The notes under the pieces: generated by a model
The model's database searches: none
Told to the model about the DNA's origin: nothing
Seen by the model: the letters and a program-made list of their open reading frames with translations, nothing else
Source: Escherichia phage PSD2002
Sequence record: OK335775.1
Strand: one strand, 5' to 3'
DNA: 64,000 bases
Position numbers and translations under genes: made by a program
In this document: piece by piece, positions 5,147 to 34,195 of the stretch
Numbering within the stretch: position 1 is the stretch's first letter
Layout: every line of letters begins with the position of its first letter

Positions 5147-6268
5147 TTAATATTTTTCTCTAAATTCAGCGACCCAAACCTGACCAGGTTTAGTGCCTGT
5201 TTTATCATATAGCTGGGCTATGGTAGTACCCATATTTTTAGTTTCCGTACCAAAGTTCATACGAATACCGTTAACACCAAATTCAGCAGGTTTTGGCTGA
5301 GGTTCTGATTCAGATATCTCACCGAACATAACATTTCGAACTCCGCCTTGGCCAGCCGAAGCTGTTTTTCTGGCATAAAGAGTAAAGTCTGTAGTACCTT
5401 CAGGAACCATTACTACCCGTTCAAATGTCATCCATGCACCAGCAGGAACGTTGGAAGGAACGTCCATATTAACTGTCCCAGTTAAAGCACCTGAGGCATT
5501 AAAAAATCTAACAGACATCTGAGAGGTCCCGACGTCTTTTAAAGCTTGGTCATACATTAATTGAAACTTAAGGTAAAAGAATTCACCTGGCTTCATGTTA
5601 TAATCTGTTAATGGGGTGGTAGGAGATTCGGTAGGAAATCGCTTAATTTCATCTCCCTCATTGCTTAGATAAGTGCTTTCGTCTTCAACAATTCTGACAG
5701 GATATCCTGTACCACCGACGTCGCTGATATCATCAAATACCACTTCTAATGGAGTAGAAACATCTTCGACAAGCACCCCATCATTATAAAGCACATGTTC
5801 CATTACTATAGCATTCCTTCCTGAAACATAAAATGCAGAATAAGATGGCTCAAACCGGTCTATTAACCATTTAGTAGGGAATGCGGTACTTCCTGCTGCA
5901 CGGAACCAATCGATAAGTTTTTGTGAAGCATTTAATCTACCAGAAGATACTAAACAAACTATTCTATTGGCCGGTATAGAATTTATATACGTTATAAAAG
6001 CTTCAGAAATAACATCAAAATCTTTTGTAAAACTATAAGTTTTGTTAGCCACTATTTTAGGTTCAGCACTAACATCAATTTCTATAAGGTTTAATCCATT
6101 TTGAAAATTCTGGGAACCGAAGTTCCCATCTTGAAATTTAACATATGCTTTTGTGGTAGACTTAGTACAACTACCCGCTATACTAAGTTTATACCTTACA
6201 GCATTGTTTTCAGATAATGTAGGAACCTGGACATATCCTTGTCCAAATTCTGCCATAAATCTTTCCAT
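5147..6268 (-). CDS. 35: Long tail fibre hinge protein gp35
   Basis: 373 aa; MERFMAEFGQGYVQ...KPAEFGVNGIR... matches T4 gp35 in length and sequence. Confidence 0.9.
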   Translation of the reverse strand: MERFMAEFGQGYVQVPTLSENNAVRYKLSIAGSCTKSTTKAYVKFQDGNFGSQNFQNGLNLIEIDVSAEPKIVANKTYSFTKDFDVISEAFITYINSIPANRIVCLVSSGRLNASQKLIDWFRAAGSTAFPTKWLIDRFEPSYSAFYVSGRNAIVMEHVLYNDGVLVEDVSTPLEVVFDDISDVGGTGYPVRIVEDESTYLSNEGDEIKRFPTESPTTPLTDYNMKPGEFFYLKFQLMYDQALKDVGTSQMSVRFFNASGALTGTVNMDVPSNVPAGAWMTFERVVMVPEGTTDFTLYARKTASAGQGGVRNVMFGEISESEPQPKPAEFGVNGIRMNFGTETKNMGTTIAQLYDKTGTKPGQVWVAEFREKY

Positions 6269-6276
6269 AATACCTC

Positions 6277-9200
6277 TTATTCAATCCACTCAAACTTAAC
6301 GGATTTAGTGACCGGGTCAGGAATAATACGAACGTTACCAATACGTAACCAATCAAGGATTGTAATGTTACCCATTGTAGCGTTATCAGCAGGCAATGCA
6401 CCAACCTCTTCCGCAGAAGGAGGGTTATCTGCCGTATAGACCATAGAGAACGTAGTCCATGCGTTTTTATTTTTCTGCCAGGTACGTGTATAACGAATAG
6501 TACCACCATTCAGTCCTGTAGGATAGCACACCCAATCCTGATAACATGAATCCAATGTATTACCAAACTGAGTTAACGTACCAGGATATTTAACTTCCTT
6601 ATCACGAACAGAATAATCAAACCAAGTACCACGTAATTTCTGACCTGATGTACCGAGAACCTCGTCACCAAAACTACCGTCTTCGTTACGATAACGAATA
6701 GCCGGAGAACTAAATGCACCCGTTTCTGTCAACCAACCAGAAGCATTCCATATCTCATCAGAAACACCGGCAGGTTTAGTTTGGACCGTATCAATATTAA
6801 CCTGACGTTTAGTTTTCATCGTCCAATAACCAGGGAACAGGTTAAATGTAGCCGAATCATTGATATCGACAGACCAGAAGCCAACGGTTTCTGCAGTAGG
6901 GGCCTGCGATGCTAATGTAGGTTTAACACCAACAGAGCGGACGTATTTTTGAGCAACCAAACCATTATTTGCCGATACCTGTCCGGTGGAAACGATAGTA
7001 CCTGAAGTAGTTACGTTTTGCAATGAAGACAGAGCAGAAGCATTTAATGTAGTTGTAGAAACACCGTTAGAAGTGGTTATACCTGTGATATTAGCATTCT
7101 TAGAAATACTAATGGAACCACTATTAACAGCAAAGTCACCAGTCGTATTAAAGGTCCAGTAGAAAGATTCTAAAGAACCCGGCGATGGAAGATAATGTAT
7201 TTTAAAATCACGAGTTCCGTCGTTTACAGTGCCTAAAGAGAATGTACCTTGCCCTAAACGTTGTTTAACAATAGGATGGAACTTGGCATCCGGGGTCGAA
7301 TTTATCTCGGCAAAAATCGGAGCTAAAGTATCACCTTGAGAGTTCCAAGTACCTGCACCAGATTGGGGTCCTACAAATTTAATAGATTTACCTGAGCTAA
7401 CAGATACATCATTTTTAAAAGTAGAATTTCCAGTTACTTCTAGAGAACCTAAAATAGTGTTGCCGGTAATATTAGCCGTACTAGAAGACACTAGAGGAGC
7501 GGCCAGGTTCAATTGTTTTGTCAACGTTAAAGAACCATTAACCGTTTGGTCAACGTCTCTACGAATGAACTGGAGTGAATCTAGGCCATCCAATTTCTCG
7601 GAGTTCACAGCCGTAGCATTTATAGGTAAAAAGTTCTGTAAAGTTTTATTCATCTCGTAAGATGAAACCGCATAACCTGTTTTAGGGTAGTTAGCTGCGT
7701 TCAGAACAGTATCGTCGTTCTCATAAAGGCCTGTACCTGAGTTAAATTTAACACCAGAACCGGTAACTTTATTTCCTGAATAGGTTAAAGCACCTTCGGT
7801 TAATTTAACAAATCCACGACGAAGTGCAGTAGCTTCCCAAGTAGTTTCGGTCTGTACTACATATTTTAAACCAGAAGGGCTTACAGCCAAAACTTTAGAA
7901 GTTCCTGCGGTTGTTTCGGTATTGGTTGCAACACGAATAATACCTTCAGAACTTTCAGTAGATTTTTTAGAGTGTAATTTCAAAGGAGTGATGATGGTTT
8001 TGTCATCAGTACCAACGTTGACTTCGGTCTGGGTCGCCAGGCGAGCAGTACCACGTTGAGTCTCATTTGCTTCTCTAATATCTAGTGTATAATGGTTCCA
8101 TAAGGTTCCTGATTCAACCAAACCACTGGCTGCTGAGACAGAAGTTCTAGCAGTATCATTAAATCTTGTTTTAATTTTCAACGGAGTTGAAATAACATTA
8201 TCTAACGTACCTGCATCAAATTCTACCTGTGTTGCAATTCTAGCAATACCAGTCAATCCTTCCATAGCTTTCCTATCATTTAACGTCTTAGGCGTTACCG
8301 CACGAGTATAATCTGTTCCAGTATCAGTTTCCTGTTGCGTAGCAATTTCAATTAACCCTGTACGAGTATCAAGAGCCACACGAGCATGTAATGTTTCCGG
8401 AGAAACAGCACTGTTGGCAAATCCACTTGCCGATTGGCCTGCGTTAACTTCAGATTGGTTAGAAAGATATACCGTACCCTGTTGAACTTGGGTAGCTTTA
8501 TACTGGTCAAGAGCTTTAGGAGAAATAACCAAATTGCCTACGTTCTTATTATAAACGTTAGTACCTACGGTGTCCCTAGCAGTCGCAGGAGTGGTTCCTA
8601 CAGTAGAGGTATATGTTACAATACCTGAAAGACTTTCCGAACCCTGGCGCGCTTGTAGCTTCTTAGGAGTGATGATTGTAGTATCATCTATACCAGCATC
8701 AGTTTCAACTTGCGTAGCAATTTCAGCAACACCACGACGAGTTTCGGTTGCAGTACGTTCGTTTAATTTCTTAGGAGAAATAATCAAATCGTCCTGGAAT
8801 GCGAAGGTTGTGTCCTGGTTCACCTGAGCAGTAGTAGCAATACGAGCAATACCACGACGAGATTCAGTCGCCACACGATTAGCTAAAGTCTGCGGAGTAA
8901 TTGCCAGTTCTTTTTCAGGATTATTTTCATGGTCAACGTTTGCTTGAGTCTGGGACGCAAGGGCAATAACACCTAAACGAGCACGAGTTAAATCATCTTT
9001 AGAATCCACACGTTCTATAGTAGGAACGTTCTGGGCAACAACCCAATATTTGCCACCTGTAGTGGTGTCTTCGATATAACTCAGTTCAATAACCGGAGTA
9101 TAACTTATATCGCCATTAAAGGTCAGTACATCATTCAATACCCATTCGGTTTCTGGTGGATATTCTGAACGTTTAGGGAATTGAAGCAATTGAACAGAAG

Positions 9201-28721: not shown

Positions 28722-28970
28722 ATGAACAAACAATTGAATCACGCTCTTGAACTGCAACGCAACGCTTGGAACAACGGTCACGAAAACTACGGCGCATCTA
28801 TTGATGTTGAGGCCGAAGCACTGGAAATCCTGCGTTATTTCAAACATCTGAATCCTGCTCAGGCTACTCTGGCTGCTGAACTGGAAGCTAAAGATGAACT
28901 GAAATTTGCTAAGCCTTTGGCTTCAGCAGCTCGTAAAGCAGTACGTCATTTTATTATTACCCTGAAGTAA
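28722..28970 (+). CDS. rIII: rIII-like lysis inhibition accessory protein
   Basis: 82 aa, same size and position (after gene 31) as T4 rIII. Confidence 0.5.
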   Translation: MNKQLNHALELQRNAWNNGHENYGASIDVEAEALEILRYFKHLNPAQATLAAELEAKDELKFAKPLASAARKAVRHFIITLK

Positions 28971-29048
28971 GTTAAATCGAGGAGCCGTCGAACTGTTTGA
29001 TTAATGATTTGCGAATCATTATAGTTTTAAGACCCCAACAGTTTTACG

Positions 29049-29077
29049 GTGTACCTCTTGAATGTATTTTGTACTAT
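29049..29077 (+). promoter_or_regulatory. T4-type early promoter upstream of a long leader
   Basis: gtgtac + 17 nt + tactat; an additional promoter-like ttga...tatagt with internal palindrome lies at 28995-29025. Confidence 0.4.
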
Positions 29078-29232
29078 CACGCGTCAGAAAAAGGTTATCT
29101 GTCTAAGTCGTGGTTGGTATGATGACGAGGTTTATGGTTATCCTGTCGTTAAATATCCTAAACCTATGTTCCCCTTGAGGGCTTGCGCAGGCAACGCCAA
29201 TAAGTCCTGCATCCTAATTTAAGAGATTTAAA

Positions 29233-29394
29233 ATGGCTAAGAAAGAAGTTAAAGTAGTTGACGGTACCTCTAAACGCGCTGGTTACAAGCGTGCGTCCAA
29301 CAAGCGTATCAATCAGGTAGTTGATAAGCTTCAAGCTCGTGCTCGTGCAGTATTGCGTGCAGATGCTGCTTGCTTTGGTAAGCCTCAGGCATAA
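29233..29394 (+). CDS. Small basic protein (53 aa), not in ORF track
   Basis: Manually translated MAKKEVKVVDGTSKRAGYKRASNKRINQVVDKLQARARAVLRADAACFGKPQA; followed directly by a strong terminator. Confidence 0.4.
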   Translation: MAKKEVKVVDGTSKRAGYKRASNKRINQVVDKLQARARAVLRADAACFGKPQA

Positions 29395-29399
29395 GTTAT

Positions 29400-29427
29400 G
29401 GGACTCCGAAGAGTCCCATTTTTGTTT
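29400..29427 (+). terminator. Rho-independent terminator
   Basis: gggactc-cgaa-gagtccc stem-loop followed by atttttgttt. Confidence 0.75.
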
Positions 29428-29446
29428 CTAAATCTTTAAAAAAATG

Positions 29447-29475
29447 GTGTACATCTCCGGTAGGCATGATACTAT
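29447..29475 (+). promoter_or_regulatory. T4-type early promoter in inverted repeat (PeSL-like), shared leader with 29889 copy
   Basis: gtgtac + 17 nt + tactat; tgtacat...atgtaca inverted repeat; downstream leader tatagac.tgtaccaaataatacgaaaacaaact repeated at 29914. Confidence 0.55.
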
Positions 29476-29516
29476 AGACATGTACCAAATAATACGAAAA
29501 CAAACTGGAGAATAAA

Positions 29517-29885
29517 ATGAAAATCAATCTTAACTCATATATCAAATGTAAAGACCACGACGGTTACAAAGCAATCGAAACTAAAGAAATGCAATGGCAC
29601 TTGTACAAAGAACAATTTGAATTTGTAGGTTGCATGACTCCGGAAGGTCCTTCTGATGACTTCTCTTGGAAAATTATGGTAACAAACTTTTTTACCGGTG
29701 ATACCTACGAACTGAAAACTATCATAACCGGTAAGATTCGTTGTAAGACCTATGAAGATGAAGAAACCGGTTATTCTGAAGATGTTACATGGTATCAAAA
29801 TGGTCGCACTACTGCTGATGAGTTGATTGAAAAAATGAAAGCCAAAGGTGAATTAAATTTAGATAATTGGATTAAAGTTGCATAA
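29517..29885 (+). CDS. Hypothetical early protein
   Basis: 122 aa ORF after early promoter. Confidence 0.5.
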   Translation: MKINLNSYIKCKDHDGYKAIETKEMQWHLYKEQFEFVGCMTPEGPSDDFSWKIMVTNFFTGDTYELKTIITGKIRCKTYEDEETGYSEDVTWYQNGRTTADELIEKMKAKGELNLDNWIKVA

Positions 29886-29888
29886 AAC

Positions 29889-29917
29889 AGTTTACTTTGG
29901 TACAGGTTGTGTTATTA
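29889..29917 (+). promoter_or_regulatory. T4-type early promoter in 9-bp inverted repeat (PeSL-like)
   Basis: gtttac + 17 nt + tattat; ggtacaggt ... acctgtacc. Confidence 0.55.
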
Positions 29918-29967
29918 TAGACCTGTACCAAATAATACGAAAACAAACTAAACCAAAGGATAATAAA

Positions 29968-30333
29968 ATGAACTACATCAACTTCGAACGTAAATATGTT
30001 TCTATCGGTGCGGTTGGTTCTAACGAATACATGTGTTTATGGGAGCATAAAAACGGTTCAGTTTGCGAAATCGACCATTGGGTTTCTCCTGATTATGTTT
30101 ATATGCGATTTGAAAATGGTATCACTCTTTCAATCACTAAAGAAGGTTCTTCTTTTAAAATAGCTTTAGATGATGATTTCCGTCAACGTGATTTAGGTAC
30201 TCATCCTTGCTGGAACGGCGTTAATCGTAAGCTTCTGGTTAAAACCTGGATTCGTCACATCCTGAGCAACCGAGCTAAACCTGAACACCTGGAAGCAATC
30301 TTTGATGTAGTTCTGAACGAATTCGATATCTAA
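29968..30333 (+). CDS. Hypothetical early protein
   Basis: 121 aa from ATG after repeated leader (track ORF start 29878 lies upstream of the promoter). Confidence 0.5.
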   Translation: MNYINFERKYVSIGAVGSNEYMCLWEHKNGSVCEIDHWVSPDYVYMRFENGITLSITKEGSSFKIALDDDFRQRDLGTHPCWNGVNRKLLVKTWIRHILSNRAKPEHLEAIFDVVLNEFDI

Positions 30334-30343
30334 TCTTAAAAAT

Positions 30344-30362
30344 GGAGGCTTCGGCCTCCTTT
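30344..30362 (+). terminator. GC hairpin with UUCG loop (terminator / processing signal)
   Basis: ggaggc-ttcg-gcctcc followed by ttt. Confidence 0.45.
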
Positions 30363-30374
30363 GAGGAAAATATT

Positions 30375-30662
30375 ATGTTTATGACCACTTATTTCGATAC
30401 TCGTAAAAATTTCTGTGAAGTTGTTTTCTCTAAAGCAGGTAAAGACGTTCCTGCCGACAAACAACCTACTCGTGAATCTATTAAGGCCTATGCTGATGTT
30501 GTATGCCCTGTAGAATTCCGTACTGTTAATGGTCGTGATACCTTAGCAATCACTAAGCTCAACCGTGATATCAATATCGACCCTAGTGCCGCCCGTGAAG
30601 TCAATACCTCTGACATCTATGGTGGTAATGTTAAATCACACGGCTTTCAGATGAGGTTCTAA
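30375..30662 (+). CDS. Hypothetical protein
   Basis: 95 aa from ATG with GAGGA RBS downstream of hairpin. Confidence 0.45.
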   Translation: MFMTTYFDTRKNFCEVVFSKAGKDVPADKQPTRESIKAYADVVCPVEFRTVNGRDTLAITKLNRDINIDPSAAREVNTSDIYGGNVKSHGFQMRF

Positions 30663-30856
30663 TGCAACTATTTTTATCGCAAACAGTCCAGTTAAAAGGC
30701 GTAGGTATTCCTGGAATGATTTCCAAGGTTCTACCTGCTTTTAAATTAGGTAATGTTATTATTAAAGAAGCCTACACCGTCTTATGGGTCGATGGAACTG
30801 AAGACGTTCGCATGGGCGGTGAACTGTCTGTAATCAAATGTTTAAAGCGAGGATAA
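30662..30856 (+). CDS. Hypothetical small protein
   Basis: 64 aa ORF. Confidence 0.4.
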   Translation: MQLFLSQTVQLKGVGIPGMISKVLPAFKLGNVIIKEAYTVLWVDGTEDVRMGGELSVIKCLKRG

Positions 30857-30857
30857 T

Positions 30858-31070
30858 ATGTTTAAGAAATTGATTCAGAAATTATTAGGTACGGAAATGG
30901 TCGAAGTGACTTATCGTGTAACTGATTTATCTCCTGTGCATCCACAAGATGAACCATATACTAAAACAATTAAAATGCTGAAATCTGACGGCGGATTATC
31001 TATTAAAGACCGTCTACCTTGTTATGGTCATTGGGCTGATGTAGAGATTATCAGTGTCAAAGATATTTAA
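30858..31070 (+). CDS. Hypothetical small protein, tandem paralogue A
   Basis: 70 aa; MFKKLIQKLLG.E.VEVTYRV.DLSP......IISVKDI shared with adjacent ORF. Confidence 0.5.
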   Translation: MFKKLIQKLLGTEMVEVTYRVTDLSPVHPQDEPYTKTIKMLKSDGGLSIKDRLPCYGHWADVEIISVKDI

Positions 31071-31079
31071 GGAGTCTTC

Positions 31080-31292
31080 ATGATTAAGAAATTATTTAAA
31101 AAGCTGTTTGGCTTGGAACTGGTTGAAGTGACTTATCGTGTTATTGATTTATCACCGCCATATGCTTGCGATGAAGATGCTATTAAAACTGTTGTTATGC
31201 GAAAAACATATCGCGGGCAGTCAATTAAAGAAAGATTGCCAGATCATGGCATGTGGTATGCAACCAAGATTATCAGTGTCAAAGATGTCTGA
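31080..31292 (+). CDS. Hypothetical small protein, tandem paralogue B
   Basis: 70 aa; about 50 percent identical to 30858..31070 with conserved termini. Confidence 0.5.
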   Translation: MIKKLFKKLFGLELVEVTYRVIDLSPPYACDEDAIKTVVMRKTYRGQSIKERLPDHGMWYATKIISVKDV

Positions 31293-31743
31293 GTTAGAAA
31301 TCAGAAGTAATTTTCCGTGGCCATCGTGTGCATTAAGTAACTTTGCTAAATGGCCTTTCGTTATGGATGGTATCCAATTTGGAGGGCTCGAAGGATTCCT
31401 CCAAGGGTGTAAGGTGAGAAATCATGAACAACAAAAACGTATATTTGGGATGTCCGGTCTGGCCGCACAACAAACTGGAAGAGCTTATGCAAGAGCTGCG
31501 GACCGTGGGACGCTTTTCTGGCTTGGAATTCCCTTTTCAAGATACTCTACATCATGGAAAGAGTTGTATACAAATGCATATTTTGAAGCAGCGCTCCAAA
31601 ACAAAGGATTCCGCGACGCATTACAAGCTACAAAGGGCAAAGTTTTAAAGCATTCGATGGCGAGTCACCTTACAGAATGTGATACAATACTAACTGAAAA
31701 AGAGTTTATCGACATCCTAAACAAATTGAGAGATTTATTATGA
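31285..31743 (+). CDS. NADAR (YbiA-like) domain protein, putative ADP-ribose/N-glycoside hydrolase
   Basis: 152 aa from ATG overlapping previous stop; LSNFAKWPF.MDG..F.G.EGFLQG.K resembles YbiA/NADAR core (SNFA.WP...DG...E..FQA.K). Confidence 0.55.
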   Translation: MSELEIRSNFPWPSCALSNFAKWPFVMDGIQFGGLEGFLQGCKVRNHEQQKRIFGMSGLAAQQTGRAYARAADRGTLFWLGIPFSRYSTSWKELYTNAYFEAALQNKGFRDALQATKGKVLKHSMASHLTECDTILTEKEFIDILNKLRDLL

Positions 31744-32378
31744 AACCAGTTATCTTAACAGATATCGATGGAGTATGTTTAAGTTGGCAGTCCGGCTTGC
31801 CTTATTTCGCACAGAAATATAATTTGCCTTTAGAACATATTTTGAATATGATTCAGGACGAACGTTTCTTATCTCCTGGTGAGCTGTTTAATTGTGATAA
31901 TGAATTAGGCGCTCGTTTAATCGAGAAGTACAATCAGTCAGATTTTATTCGTTATCTGTCTCCTTACATGGACGCATTAAAACATATCAACAAGCTCAAA
32001 AAAGACTTCGATTTTGTAGCCGTGACTGCGCTAGGCGACTCAATTGATGCACTGCTGAATAGACAATTCAATTTGAATGCTTTGTTCCCTGGCGCATTCA
32101 AGGAGATTCTGATGTGTGGTCATTCAGAATCAAAAGAAGACCTCTTCATAAGAGCTAAAAATACGTACGGTAAACGTATTAAGTTTTATGTTGATGATTT
32201 GGCTCACCACTGTGATGCTGCATCTAATGTTCTCATGGATATCCAAGTTTATTGGTTAGCTCGTGGTGAACGTGACTTTAAACCTAATTTAGCCGTAAAG
32301 GTTAATTCATGGGACGATATCGCAGCAATCGAATCCCTTCGTAATAATGCCGCAGTTGAATGGATTGCTCGAGGTTAA
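31740..32378 (+). CDS. HAD-superfamily hydrolase (putative nucleotidase/phosphatase)
   Basis: 212 aa; N-terminal ILTDIDGV (HAD motif I DxDG) and later YVDD; ATGA overlap with NADAR gene. Confidence 0.55.
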   Translation: MKPVILTDIDGVCLSWQSGLPYFAQKYNLPLEHILNMIQDERFLSPGELFNCDNELGARLIEKYNQSDFIRYLSPYMDALKHINKLKKDFDFVAVTALGDSIDALLNRQFNLNALFPGAFKEILMCGHSESKEDLFIRAKNTYGKRIKFYVDDLAHHCDAASNVLMDIQVYWLARGERDFKPNLAVKVNSWDDIAAIESLRNNAAVEWIARG

Positions 32379-32379
32379 T

Positions 32380-32658
32380 ATGTTTGTAGTTCATACAATT
32401 TCAGACTATGGTCCTACCACTACAATGGATTATGGTCATGTAAACCAGTTTATTCGTCATGTGAATCATGATTACTCATTTGATGTAAATCCGGCTAAAG
32501 ACCATCCTGTTTGGCGCGAATGCGTCGAACAGGGATTCATTTATGTCCACTTTATGTCCAAGTTCAAATCTGATGGGCGAATGAGATTTGTGTTCTCTTA
32601 TCATAAGCGATTAGACTTGCTTTTGGCTGATGTGGCTTATAATAGAATCCATGACTAA
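32380..32658 (+). CDS. Hypothetical protein
   Basis: 92 aa from first ATG after upstream stop. Confidence 0.45.
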   Translation: MFVVHTISDYGPTTTMDYGHVNQFIRHVNHDYSFDVNPAKDHPVWRECVEQGFIYVHFMSKFKSDGRMRFVFSYHKRLDLLLADVAYNRIHD

Positions 32659-32668
32659 TGAGGTGATT

Positions 32669-34195
32669 ATGATTTTAGATATTTTAAACGAAATTGCTGC
32701 TATTGATTCTACTAAAGCTAAAGAAGCCATTATTGCTCGTGAAAAGGACAATGAGCTTCTGAAACGTGTTTATCGTATGGCTTATACCCGTCGTCTGAAC
32801 TACGGTATTAAAAAGTGGCCAGAACCTGGATTTACATCTCAATCCTTTGGTATGATTACTCTTGAAGACCTTCTTGATTTCGCTGAATTCACATTAGCCA
32901 CACGTAAGATTACGGGTAATGCGGCTATTGAAGAACTGGCTCAAATCATTGCTGATGCTAAGGCCCCGGATGCCGAGGTATTACGTCGTGTAATGATGCG
33001 CGACCTTGAATGTGGTGCATCGATTTCTATTGCTAACAAGGTTTGGAAAGGTTTAATCCCTGAACAACCGCAGATGTTGGCGAGTTCTTATGATGAAGCT
33101 TTGATTAAGAAAAATATTAAATGGCCAGCGTTTGCTCAATTAAAAGCTGATGGTGCTCGTTGTTTTGCCGAAGTTCGTAACGATGGTGTGACATTCCTTA
33201 CTCGTGGTGGTAATGAATACCAAGGGCTTCATCTTTTAGCTGCTGAATTAATGGCGATGACCGAAGAAGCTCGTCAACGTCATCCTAATGGCGTTATGAT
33301 TGATGGCGAATTAGTTTACCATACTCCTAAAGTTGAACCTAAAGCATCTAATGATTTGTTTAGTATGTTTGACGAGGAACTTCCTGAATTAAGTAAAGCC
33401 AAAGAATTCCAAACTGTCGCCGATCGTTCTACGTCAAATGGATTGGCTAATAAGGCTCTTCAAGGAACTATCACCCCATCTGAAGCCGCTGGTATGGTAT
33501 TACAGGCATGGGATTATGTCCCACTGGATGTCGTGTATTCTGAAGGCAAAATTAAAGGTGATAAGTATGATGTACGCTTTACAGCCTTAGAACTTATGGT
33601 GGCTCATAATGTCGTATTGCATGGCACAACGCGTGTTGAAGCTATCGAAAACCAGTGGGTTAATAATCTTGAAGAAGCTAAAGTCGTTTATAAGAAATAT
33701 GTCGACCAAGGTCTGGAAGGTATTATCCTTAAGAACATGGACTCCTACTGGGAAAACCGCCGTTCTAAGAATCTTATCAAGTTCAAAGAAGTAATCGATA
33801 TTGCTTTAGAAGTGGTGGGTTATTATGAACACTCGAAGGACCCTAACAAACTAGGCGGTGTTGAATTAGTATCACATTGTCGTCGAATTACAAGTGACTG
33901 TGGTTCAGGCTTTAAAGATACCACCCATAAGAAAGATAAATCAGGTAAAAAAGTATTGATTCCATTGGAAGACCGTCCTGATTTAGACCGTGAACTTCTT
34001 ATGAAACAAGCTCGTGAAGGTAAGTTGATTGGACGTATTGCTGACTGTGAATGTAATGGTTGGGTTCATTCTAAAGGACGTACTGATACTGTAGGTATTT
34101 TCCTTCCAATTATTAAAGGTTGGCGTTTCGATAAAACAGAAGCTGATACATTTGAAGATGTATTCGGGTCGTGGGACCAAACAGGACTTAATTAA
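32669..34195 (+). CDS. 30: ATP-dependent DNA ligase gp30
   Basis: 508 aa from MILDILNEIA; ligase motifs (KADGAR adenylation lysine, IDGELVY, EGIILK) and overall colinearity with T4 DNA ligase. Confidence 0.9.
   Translation: MILDILNEIAAIDSTKAKEAIIAREKDNELLKRVYRMAYTRRLNYGIKKWPEPGFTSQSFGMITLEDLLDFAEFTLATRKITGNAAIEELAQIIADAKAPDAEVLRRVMMRDLECGASISIANKVWKGLIPEQPQMLASSYDEALIKKNIKWPAFAQLKADGARCFAEVRNDGVTFLTRGGNEYQGLHLLAAELMAMTEEARQRHPNGVMIDGELVYHTPKVEPKASNDLFSMFDEELPELSKAKEFQTVADRSTSNGLANKALQGTITPSEAAGMVLQAWDYVPLDVVYSEGKIKGDKYDVRFTALELMVAHNVVLHGTTRVEAIENQWVNNLEEAKVVYKKYVDQGLEGIILKNMDSYWENRRSKNLIKFKEVIDIALEVVGYYEHSKDPNKLGGVELVSHCRRITSDCGSGFKDTTHKKDKSGKKVLIPLEDRPDLDRELLMKQAREGKLIGRIADCECNGWVHSKGRTDTVGIFLPIIKGWRFDKTEADTFEDVFGSWDQTGLN

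Follow-up and report, generated by a model that had tools for sequence, protein, structure and literature searches.

The 30.9-30.1 gene cluster of Escherichia phage PSD2002 and its relationship to the 30.x region of phage T4

Phage T4 carries a group of small genes between rIII and gene 30, the DNA ligase gene. These are genes 30.9, 30.8, 30.7, 30.6, 30.5, 30.4, 30.3 (with 30.3'), 30.2 and 30.1 (NC_000866, 127205-130540). The cluster is thus already known: it has been annotated in T4 for decades, and its only understood member, AdfN, was characterised in 2025. Here we describe the equivalent block, positions 29233-32658, in a stretch of 64,000 nucleotides from Escherichia phage PSD2002 (sequence record OK335775.1). 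This whole stretch is referred to as the window. The block is compared with T4 and other Straboviridae, and the spacer that precedes it is described as a candidate structured RNA.

AdfN is the product of T4 gene 30.3. It is a DNA ADP-ribosylglycohydrolase of the NADAR fold, which strips the modifications made by DarT1 and gives T-even phages resistance to DarTG1 (Johannesman et al., PMC11825919). Its activity requires residues E36 and K43, an RB69 allele that lacks the last helix is defective, and an extra T-even factor is said to be needed (PMC11825919). In the HIDEN-SEQ transposon screen T4 adfN was dispensable on E. coli K-12 and essential only with DarTG1, and the new anti-defence genes that it names for T4 include none of the eight genes of the present block other than 30.3 and 30.2 (bioRxiv 10.1101/2025.11.20.689424). 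The second described system that bears on the block is the PeSL, an upstream stem-loop followed by an early promoter of the form TTTACW-N17-TAYWAT (Comeau, Arbiol and Krisch, PMC4122927).

The block and its T4 counterpart

An initial annotation made from the sequence alone had described the block as a hyperplastic group of about eleven small early open reading frames (ORFs) that corresponds to the T4 30.x region. The count agrees with what is found here, which is ten consecutive plus-strand ORFs and 30.3' embedded in 30.3. The flanking ORFs are dCMP deaminase, gp31 and rIII (28722-28970) on one side and DNA ligase (32669-34195) and Alt on the other. In a BLASTP comparison with the T4 30.x proteins the top match of all ten ORFs was the namesake (E values 4e-10 to 3e-101), at amino-acid identities of 28-86%. 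Order and strand relative to rIII and the ligase gene are those of T4, and the annotations of T4, IME08 and PSD9 agree. The correspondence to the T4 region proposed earlier is borne out by these matches.

At the nucleotide level 757 phage records match positions 29100-32800. The best-matching genomes are Dhakavirus: Shigella phage PSD9 (99.3% identity), WG01 (97.5%) and IME08 (94.7%). We interpret the block as the Dhakavirus version of the T4 30.9-30.1 cluster, whose small early genes are non-essential, conserved as a set and read rightward from rIII to ligase, and give this reading a probability of nearly 0.9. The genes are as follows.

30.9: 29233-29394, plus strand; 53 amino acids (aa), very basic; 70% identical to T4 gp30.9 over 43 aa; phrog_1427 (E 4e-27); annotated as 30.9 in IME08
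30.8: 29517-29885, plus strand; 122 aa; PF06019 Phage_30_8 (E 1e-44); 40% identical to T4 gp30.8
30.7: 29968-30333, plus strand; 121 aa; Phage_T4_Gp30_7; 83% identical to T4
30.6: 30375-30662, plus strand; 95 aa; phrog_2153 (E 2e-48); 84% identical to T4 gp30.6
30.5: 30662-30856, plus strand; 64 aa; phrog_1690; 68% identical to T4 gp30.5
30.4a: 30858-31070, plus strand; 70 aa; phrog_2042 (E 2e-34); 44% identical to T4 gp30.4; the ancestral-type copy
30.4b: 31080-31292, plus strand; 70 aa; 28% identical to T4; a divergent tandem paralogue
30.3: 31285-31743, plus strand; 152 aa; PF08010 (E 3.6e-64); 86% identical to T4 AdfN
30.3': 31424-31648, plus strand; 74 aa in the +1 frame within 30.3; homologous to the annotated T4 30.3'
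30.2: 31740-32378, plus strand; 212 aa; predicted phosphatase of the haloacid dehalogenase (HAD) superfamily, short form; 74% identical to T4
30.1: 32380-32658, plus strand; 92 aa; DUF3045, PF11243 (E 6e-16); 43% identical to T4 gp30.1

The likeness to T4 extends to the intergenic layout. A terminator follows 30.9, early promoters precede 30.8 and 30.7, a GC tetraloop hairpin precedes 30.6, and overlapping starts are found beyond it. From 30.6 to ligase the intergenic spacing is -8 to +10 nucleotides (nt). The overlapping stop and start codons that had been pointed out earlier correspond to three true overlaps, 30.6/30.5 (1 nt), 30.4b/30.3 (8 nt) and 30.3/30.2 (ATGA). PSD2002 differs from T4 in having a second, divergent copy of 30.4, in the weak conservation of 30.8, 30.4 and 30.1 (about 28-46% identity), and in an extra segment of about 50 nt in the leader upstream of 30.9.

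The initial annotation named untranslated ORFs as one outcome that would overturn it, and codon-position conservation bears on this. In nine of the ten ORFs the third codon position has a lower identity to T4 (0.43-0.65) than either of the first two. The exception is 30.4b, in which position 3 (0.43) is less conserved than position 2 (0.68) and more so than position 1 (0.40). Where protein identity is 84-86%, only about 50-65% of four-fold sites are identical to T4, and Shine-Dalgarno motifs are present ahead of nearly all starts. The codon-position and four-fold-site pattern shows that the ORFs are real genes under purifying selection, neither untranslated nor recently transferred. Recent horizontal transfer as the source of the 84-86% identity to T4 is ruled out by the divergence of the synonymous sites. 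The essential DNA ligase is about 60% identical to T4-type ligases, a value exceeded by 30.7 (83%), 30.6 (84%) and 30.3 (86%).

Most products of the block had been said to carry no recognisable motif. This holds only in part: all ten ORFs match PHROG families of unknown function, and five belong to named Pfam families of unknown function, among them Phage_30_8, Phage_T4_Gp30_7, Phage_30_3 and DUF3045; they are known unknowns rather than ORFans. The NCBIfam threshold was reached by none of the ORFs of the block. A match of gp30.8 to VbhA antitoxin (E 0.046; 14 bits, cut-off 25.9) was dismissed as chance. The eight products other than gp30.3 and gp30.2 are genuine proteins under purifying selection that belong to families of unknown function, and the block therefore offers a defined set of eight conserved early proteins without an assigned function.

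The segments of the cluster differ in their affinities. gp30.1 is about 97% identical to its counterpart in SP18 (Gaprivervirus; 6213-6491 of the SP18 locus) and 43% identical to that of T4, and 30.7, 30.6 and 30.3 are 83-86% identical to T4. Since gp30.1 is SP18-like and the other three are T4-like, the cluster appears to be a mosaic of segments with different histories.

gp30.3 and gp30.2

The NADAR and HAD genes noted in the initial annotation are 30.3 and 30.2, the former recognised by PF08010 and the latter by HAD motifs and fold. By its sequence gp30.3 is AdfN. The PF08010 score is 215 bits (cut-off 36), and the alignment to T4 AdfN is gap-free over 152 residues with GGLE36GFLQGCK43 kept. 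The protein is full length and has the C-terminal helix that is missing from the RB69 allele. No notable difference from AdfN was seen at the sequence level, and the activity would be that of the T4 protein. The catalytic region also has a weak match to the YbiA-type family TIGR02464 (E 0.09), and a single-sequence search against PDB sequences gave nothing significant for gp30.3. Because of the 86% identity and the intact catalytic residues, gp30.3 is expected to function as AdfN in PSD2002. It would hydrolyse the ADP-ribose placed by host DarT1 on guanines of the phage DNA and so allow replication to proceed. The anti-defence or host-takeover functions that had been suggested for most products of the block are proven, on the anti-defence side, for the T4 orthologue of 30.3 only, and are conjectural for the eight products other than gp30.3 and gp30.2.

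The evidence for gp30.2 comes from motifs and predicted structure. A database search gave 123 homologue clusters, most of them nameless; where a source was named, it was a phage or a phage-like contig. An alignment of 40 gp30.2 homologues has no variation at D8, D10, K132, D152 or D153, and T96 is kept in at least 90% of them; together these residues cover the four HAD catalytic motifs (DxD, S/T, K, DD). The AlphaFold2 (AF2) model has a predicted local distance difference test score (pLDDT) of 94.7 and a predicted template modelling score of 0.89, with a Rossmannoid core and a cap insertion. With Foldseek there were 146 PDB matches at E<=1e-3, of which 50 were listed, each of them a HAD-superfamily hydrolase. 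E values for HAD hydrolases were 6e-8 to 1e-6, and the 5'(3')-deoxyribonucleotidases 2jao, 4mum and 3bwv were among the best geometric fits.

These deoxyribonucleotidases, the NT5C family, share with gp30.2 the Rossmann-like HAD core, the inserted helical cap, the DxDGV motif I and the Thr, Lys and DD motifs. However, gp30.2 is only 14-18% identical to the structures, the template modelling scores are 0.55-0.70, and generic haloacid dehalogenases score equally. gp30.2 missed the Pfam NT5C threshold (13.4 bits against a cut-off of 24.8), and a single-sequence search of it against PDB sequences found nothing significant. The fold and motifs make gp30.2 a confidently predicted HAD-superfamily phosphatase whose membership of the NT5C subfamily is not established. 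It would be Mg-dependent and would probably act on a nucleotide or a phosphorylated sugar. The PSD2002 protein differs from T4 gp30.2 in the absence of a Pro/Asn/Tyr-rich C-terminal tail of about 85 aa.

Gene 30.2 was considered as the source of the extra T-even factor of AdfN. The two genes are coupled by ATGA, but 30.2 is found without 30.3 in four of the loci described below and there is no pointer to such a role in the papers; the idea has a low probability.

Promoters, hairpins and gene turnover

The early character of the block given in the initial annotation is supported by its promoters, which are of the early type; the late promoter TATAAATA was found nowhere in the block on either strand. 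Three matches to T4-early or PeSL-type promoters and one terminator were identified. The two promoter cassettes and the two GC tetraloop hairpins that had been recognised earlier (29398-29419 and 30344-30359) are all present.

Terminator after 30.9: 29398-29430, plus strand; hairpin at 29398-29419 with a 9-bp stem, CGAA loop and U-run; -14.3 kcal/mol, z-score -5.0
Early-promoter cassette 1: 29448-29506, plus strand; TGTACA-N16-TACTAT (29448-29475) and a conserved 5' untranslated region
Early-promoter cassette 2: 29891-29949, plus strand; TTTACT-N16-TATTAT with an upstream TG
C(UUCG)G hairpin at the 30.7|30.6 junction: 30344-30359, plus strand; GGAGGC-UUCG-GCCUCC, -12 kcal/mol

The cassettes share a direct repeat, 29467-29506 and 29910-29949, which is 93% identical over 40 nt and flanks a single gene, 30.8. 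The 34-nt core of the cassette occurs twice in the window, where 0 occurrences are expected. Cassette 1 has the PeSL layout of stem-loop or terminator, AT-rich stretch, -35, -10, Shine-Dalgarno motif and start (GGAGAATAAAATG). It departs from the PeSL consensus in a spacer of 16 rather than 17 and in a -35 element that matches at 5 of 6 positions. In cassette 2 the promoter and Shine-Dalgarno motif of a PeSL (Arbiol 2010; Comeau 2014, PMC4122927) are present, but the hairpin spans the -10 element instead. This hairpin is formed by an inverted repeat of 11-12 bp at 29896-29932 (TTTGGTACAGG...CCTGTACCAAA; -18.8 kcal/mol, z-score -5.2) that brackets the -10 element. The repeat is kept in T4, SP18 and NHEP29, and UTI-K4 has it with different arm sequences. 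As RNA the hairpin could form only in read-through transcripts.

Equivalents of the tetraloop hairpin at the 30.7|30.6 junction, also GC-rich, are found in T4, SP18, NHEP29, PG7 and UTI-K4. The loop of the 30.9 terminator is CGAA here versus UUCG on an identical stem in IME08, SP18 and T4, an inversion of the loop between the arms of the inverted repeat. A 13-bp hairpin inside the 30.1 coding sequence (32505-32534; -20.6 kcal/mol, z-score -5.1) is also present in PSD9. It is probably not functional: SP18 codons for identical amino acids destroy it, and it is lineage-specific. At the end of 30.1 the sequence TGCTT...TATAAT (32618-32643, plus strand) matches the pattern of a MotA-type middle promoter and is a candidate for the ligase gene.

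The layout suggests three transcription units. The long structured leader would be followed by 30.9 and its intrinsic terminator, and cassette 1 would drive 30.8. In the third unit, cassette 2 would be followed by 30.7, the UUCG hairpin and a coupled run of 30.6-30.5-30.4a-30.4b-30.3-30.2-30.1 into ligase. The PeSL-type cassettes may both drive and insulate transcription, and in other genera they would also be the sites at which genes are inserted, lost or replaced.

Gene content was examined in ligase-anchored loci from 13 phages of 11 genera, which were searched with profiles of the window proteins. Gene 30.2 was found in 12 of the 13 loci and 30.3 in 9. Genes 30.9, 30.8, 30.7 and 30.5 were each present in 8, all of them Tevenvirinae, and 30.1, 30.6 and 30.4 in 7, 6 and 5 loci respectively. 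The full set of ten gene families occurs in equal order in T4 (Tequatrovirus), SP18 (Gaprivervirus), NHEP29 and Dhakavirus, except that SP18 has one added gene, 30.6A, between two UUCG terminators. Real turnover is confined to Karamvirus, Kagamiyamavirus and Jiaodavirus and to phages outside Tevenvirinae. PG7, EcS1 and UTI-K4 lack 30.4 and 30.3 and have added or replacement ORFs at the 30.9|30.8, 30.8|30.7 and 30.7|30.6 junctions. JSE retains 30.3 alone, and RB43 and PMBT1 have 30.3 and 30.2 among unrelated ORFs. Wherever the flanks were read (SP18, PG7, UTI-K4) the indels were bounded by UUCG hairpins or promoters in every case, in agreement with what Comeau, Arbiol and Krisch proposed for PeSLs (PMC4122927).

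The one difference in content within Dhakavirus is the second copy of 30.4. The paralogue pair that had been noted earlier, 30.4a and 30.4b, is 57% identical in amino acids (E 1e-25). PSD9 lacks exactly one unit of 222 bp, and its single 30.4 is chimeric, with a 30.4a-like body (95% at the nucleotide level) and a 30.4b-like 3' end. Both copies are found together in 13 of 120 records. Of the 258 phage records in which some 30.4 homologue occurs, 14 have the 30.4b type (at least 95%). The two 30.4b-type records listed each have a second 30.4 place, and among them 30.4b was not seen as the sole copy. The pair goes back to a lineage-restricted tandem duplication whose copies have diverged since then, and a copy has been lost by unequal recombination where the gene ends are conserved (repeat D3).

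These comparisons bear on two other explanations of the block. One is that it is a truly hyperplastic region, in which lineage-specific ORFans, mostly phage-specific anti-defence or host-takeover genes, turn over rapidly and are swapped by recombination. The space from gp31/rIII to ligase does vary across Straboviridae (JSE, RB43, PMBT1, PG7, EcS1, UTI-K4) with indels at PeSLs, the 30.4 copy number varies within Dhakavirus, and PeSL-type cassettes are present in the block. However, all ten ORFs have T4 orthologues in equal order, the full set is common to four different Tevenvirinae lineages, several members are under purifying selection and better conserved than ligase, and the nearest genome, PSD9, differs in the block only by the 30.4b unit. 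We consider this explanation very unlikely, and it is already largely refuted for the phage group of PSD2002. The word hyperplastic in the initial annotation is fair for the wider family, which varies at PeSL junctions, but not for PSD2002 and its relatives or for T4, SP18 and NHEP29, in which the content is stable. The other explanation is that an accessory module for DNA repair and nucleotide metabolism, made up of the whole cluster or at least of 30.3-30.2-30.1, works with ligase, a housekeeping rather than an anti-defence role. Phosphorylated DNA ends or nucleotides might then be cleaned by gp30.2, for instance, and AdfN might be a general DNA de-ADP-ribosylase. No other gene of the cluster keeps its place near ligase as persistently as 30.2: in RB43 and PMBT1 it borders directly on the ligase gene or overlaps it, and in Acj9 and Aeromonas phage 65 a single ORF lies between the two. 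It is retained in these distant Straboviridae although the cluster is otherwise mostly gone, a hint that 30.2 and ligase may be linked in function or expression. Translational coupling runs up to ligase, and the fold of gp30.2 is nearest to deoxyribonucleotidases. The 3'-phosphatase domain of T4 polynucleotide kinase is likewise a DxDxT enzyme. On the other hand, T4 adfN is needed only when DarTG1 is present, 30.3 occurs without 30.2 in one locus and 30.2 without 30.3 in four, so that the two are no obligate pair, and the 212-aa model of gp30.2 has no evident end-binding or nucleic-acid-binding domain. We regard such a module as rather unlikely. The persistence of 30.2 near ligase nevertheless makes its product a sensible first target for biochemistry.

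Whether every annotated ORF and start is genuine is a separate matter, and there is about an even chance that some are artefacts, the candidates being 30.3' and the extra N-terminal residues in the long forms of 30.7, 30.6 and 30.1. The mechanically called starts of these three genes are too long. For 30.7 the start is ATG 29968, and TTG 29878 is implausible. For 30.6 it is ATG 30375, which has a GAGGA Shine-Dalgarno motif ahead of it; ATG 30342 lies upstream of that motif and within the UUCG hairpin GGAGGCUUCGGCCUCC. The start of 30.1 is 32380, and the Pfam and PHROG family profiles begin at residue 12 of the long forms of both 30.6 and 30.1. The +1 frame of 30.3' has stop codons in SP18, L019 and NHEP29, and the ATG is missing in several other variants; with the frame broken in 3 of 10 variants, 30.3' is ruled out as a conserved overlapping gene. 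In favour of 30.3', the frame is open for 76 codons in the other 7 of the 10 Tevenvirinae variants, including T4 and PSD2002, and in PSD2002 its ATG has a GGTGAG Shine-Dalgarno motif ahead of it. Zajanckauskaite et al. (1997) reportedly observed expression of 30.3' in T4.

Several points weigh against the reading of the block as a Dhakavirus version of the T4 early cluster with PeSL-type organisation. Eight of the products are established only as conserved proteins, and the AF2 model of gp30.7 is unstable (pLDDT 49-86 over five runs). The AdfN activity of gp30.3 in PSD2002 is assigned by homology, and the best sequence-level PDB match of gp30.2 is weak (2jao, E 0.07 in a profile search). The promoters and the terminator were predicted from consensus sequences or folding energies, and a generic sigma70 scan gave no excess, with 12 sites found against 17.6 expected. 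Cassette 2, lacking an upstream stem-loop, is half a PeSL. Among the 13 loci there was no relative in which 30.8 had been deleted by recombination between the 40-nt repeats.

The rIII-30.9 spacer

The best-conserved sequence of the region lies outside the block. The spacer between rIII and 30.9 (28971-29232, 262 nt) is conserved above the surrounding coding sequence, and 775 phage records match it. Over its first 89 nt the identity to T4 is 97.8%, and both differences belong to one compensatory pair. Over the last 117 nt it is 91%, with 1-nt indels that break every reading frame. The spacer is therefore non-coding, and small ORFs in the gap (for example 29049-29222) are ruled out by the same indels. 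Two conserved parts were recognised.

M1: 28979-29057, plus strand; three-tier RNA hairpin directly after the rIII stop, from RNAalifold and covariation
M3-M4: 29119-29232, plus strand; conserved 3' part of the leader with CCCCTTGAGGGCTTGCG, which is invariant, and a GCAGG/CCTGC stem; occurs once in the window

In 12 distinct T4-like variants RNAalifold predicted 25 pairs for M1, with 99.3% of cells paired and double compensatory changes at five pairs. The covariation score was 0.147 as against 0.084 for shuffled alignments, of which 0 in 500 scored as high, and slid controls were 25-62% paired. The structure is assigned to the plus (sense) strand from its invariant G.U pairs. A sigma70-like sequence, TTGATT-N17-TATAGT, is found at 28997-29025 inside the M1 hairpin. 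In M3-M4 an invariant core, CCCYTTGAGGGCTTGCG, is enclosed by a covarying stem. The closing stem is GCAGG/CCTGC in PSD2002 and T4, GGGAGC/GCTCCC in PG7-type phages and GGGAAC/GTTCCC in one contig. The MAFFT alignment of M3-M4 across genera left this stem unaligned, and the compensatory changes are given here without a formal covariation count.

The spacer is probably a structured leader or regulatory RNA for gene 30.9. That it represents an undescribed modular leader common to Tevenvirinae, in which M1 encloses a promoter and is followed by an optional module M2 and by M3-M4, is proposed tentatively and at somewhat less than even odds. Minimum-free-energy z-scores for the whole leader were unremarkable (-1.1 and -1.25). 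Since these folding energies are unexceptional, structure is argued from conservation and covariation. With Rfam neither the window nor SP18 had a match at E<=1, and PG7 had only a sub-threshold chance match on the other strand. A tRNA/tmRNA scan found none, and a literature search found no paper that describes the leader. The leader could be cis-regulatory, for example a site through which the very basic gp30.9 regulates its own gene, or it could be an element for RNA processing or stability. Should the leader be borne out, a classic model phage would have gained a new conserved structured RNA, which could matter more than the block itself.

The optional module M2, a GC-rich sequence of about 150 nt (CGGCAAGTGCATGCTACC...GCTAACGGTGTGCAACAGATAAGAG), lies between M1 and M3-M4 in SP18 (about 2450-2600 of its locus), NHEP29, PG7, EcS1, UTI-K4 and IMG/VR contigs. 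RNAalifold predicted 43 pairs for M2, 10 of them with compensatory changes, and the module matched neither Rfam nor a tRNA. A scan of IMG/VR with a 16-nt motif gave 62 loci, mostly chance occurrences in unrelated GC-rich contigs, and about 20 were usable. M2 is present in Gaprivervirus, Karamvirus, Jiaodavirus and Kagamiyamavirus and absent from T4, and PSD2002 has a degenerate remnant of about 50 nt (approximately 29066-29118).

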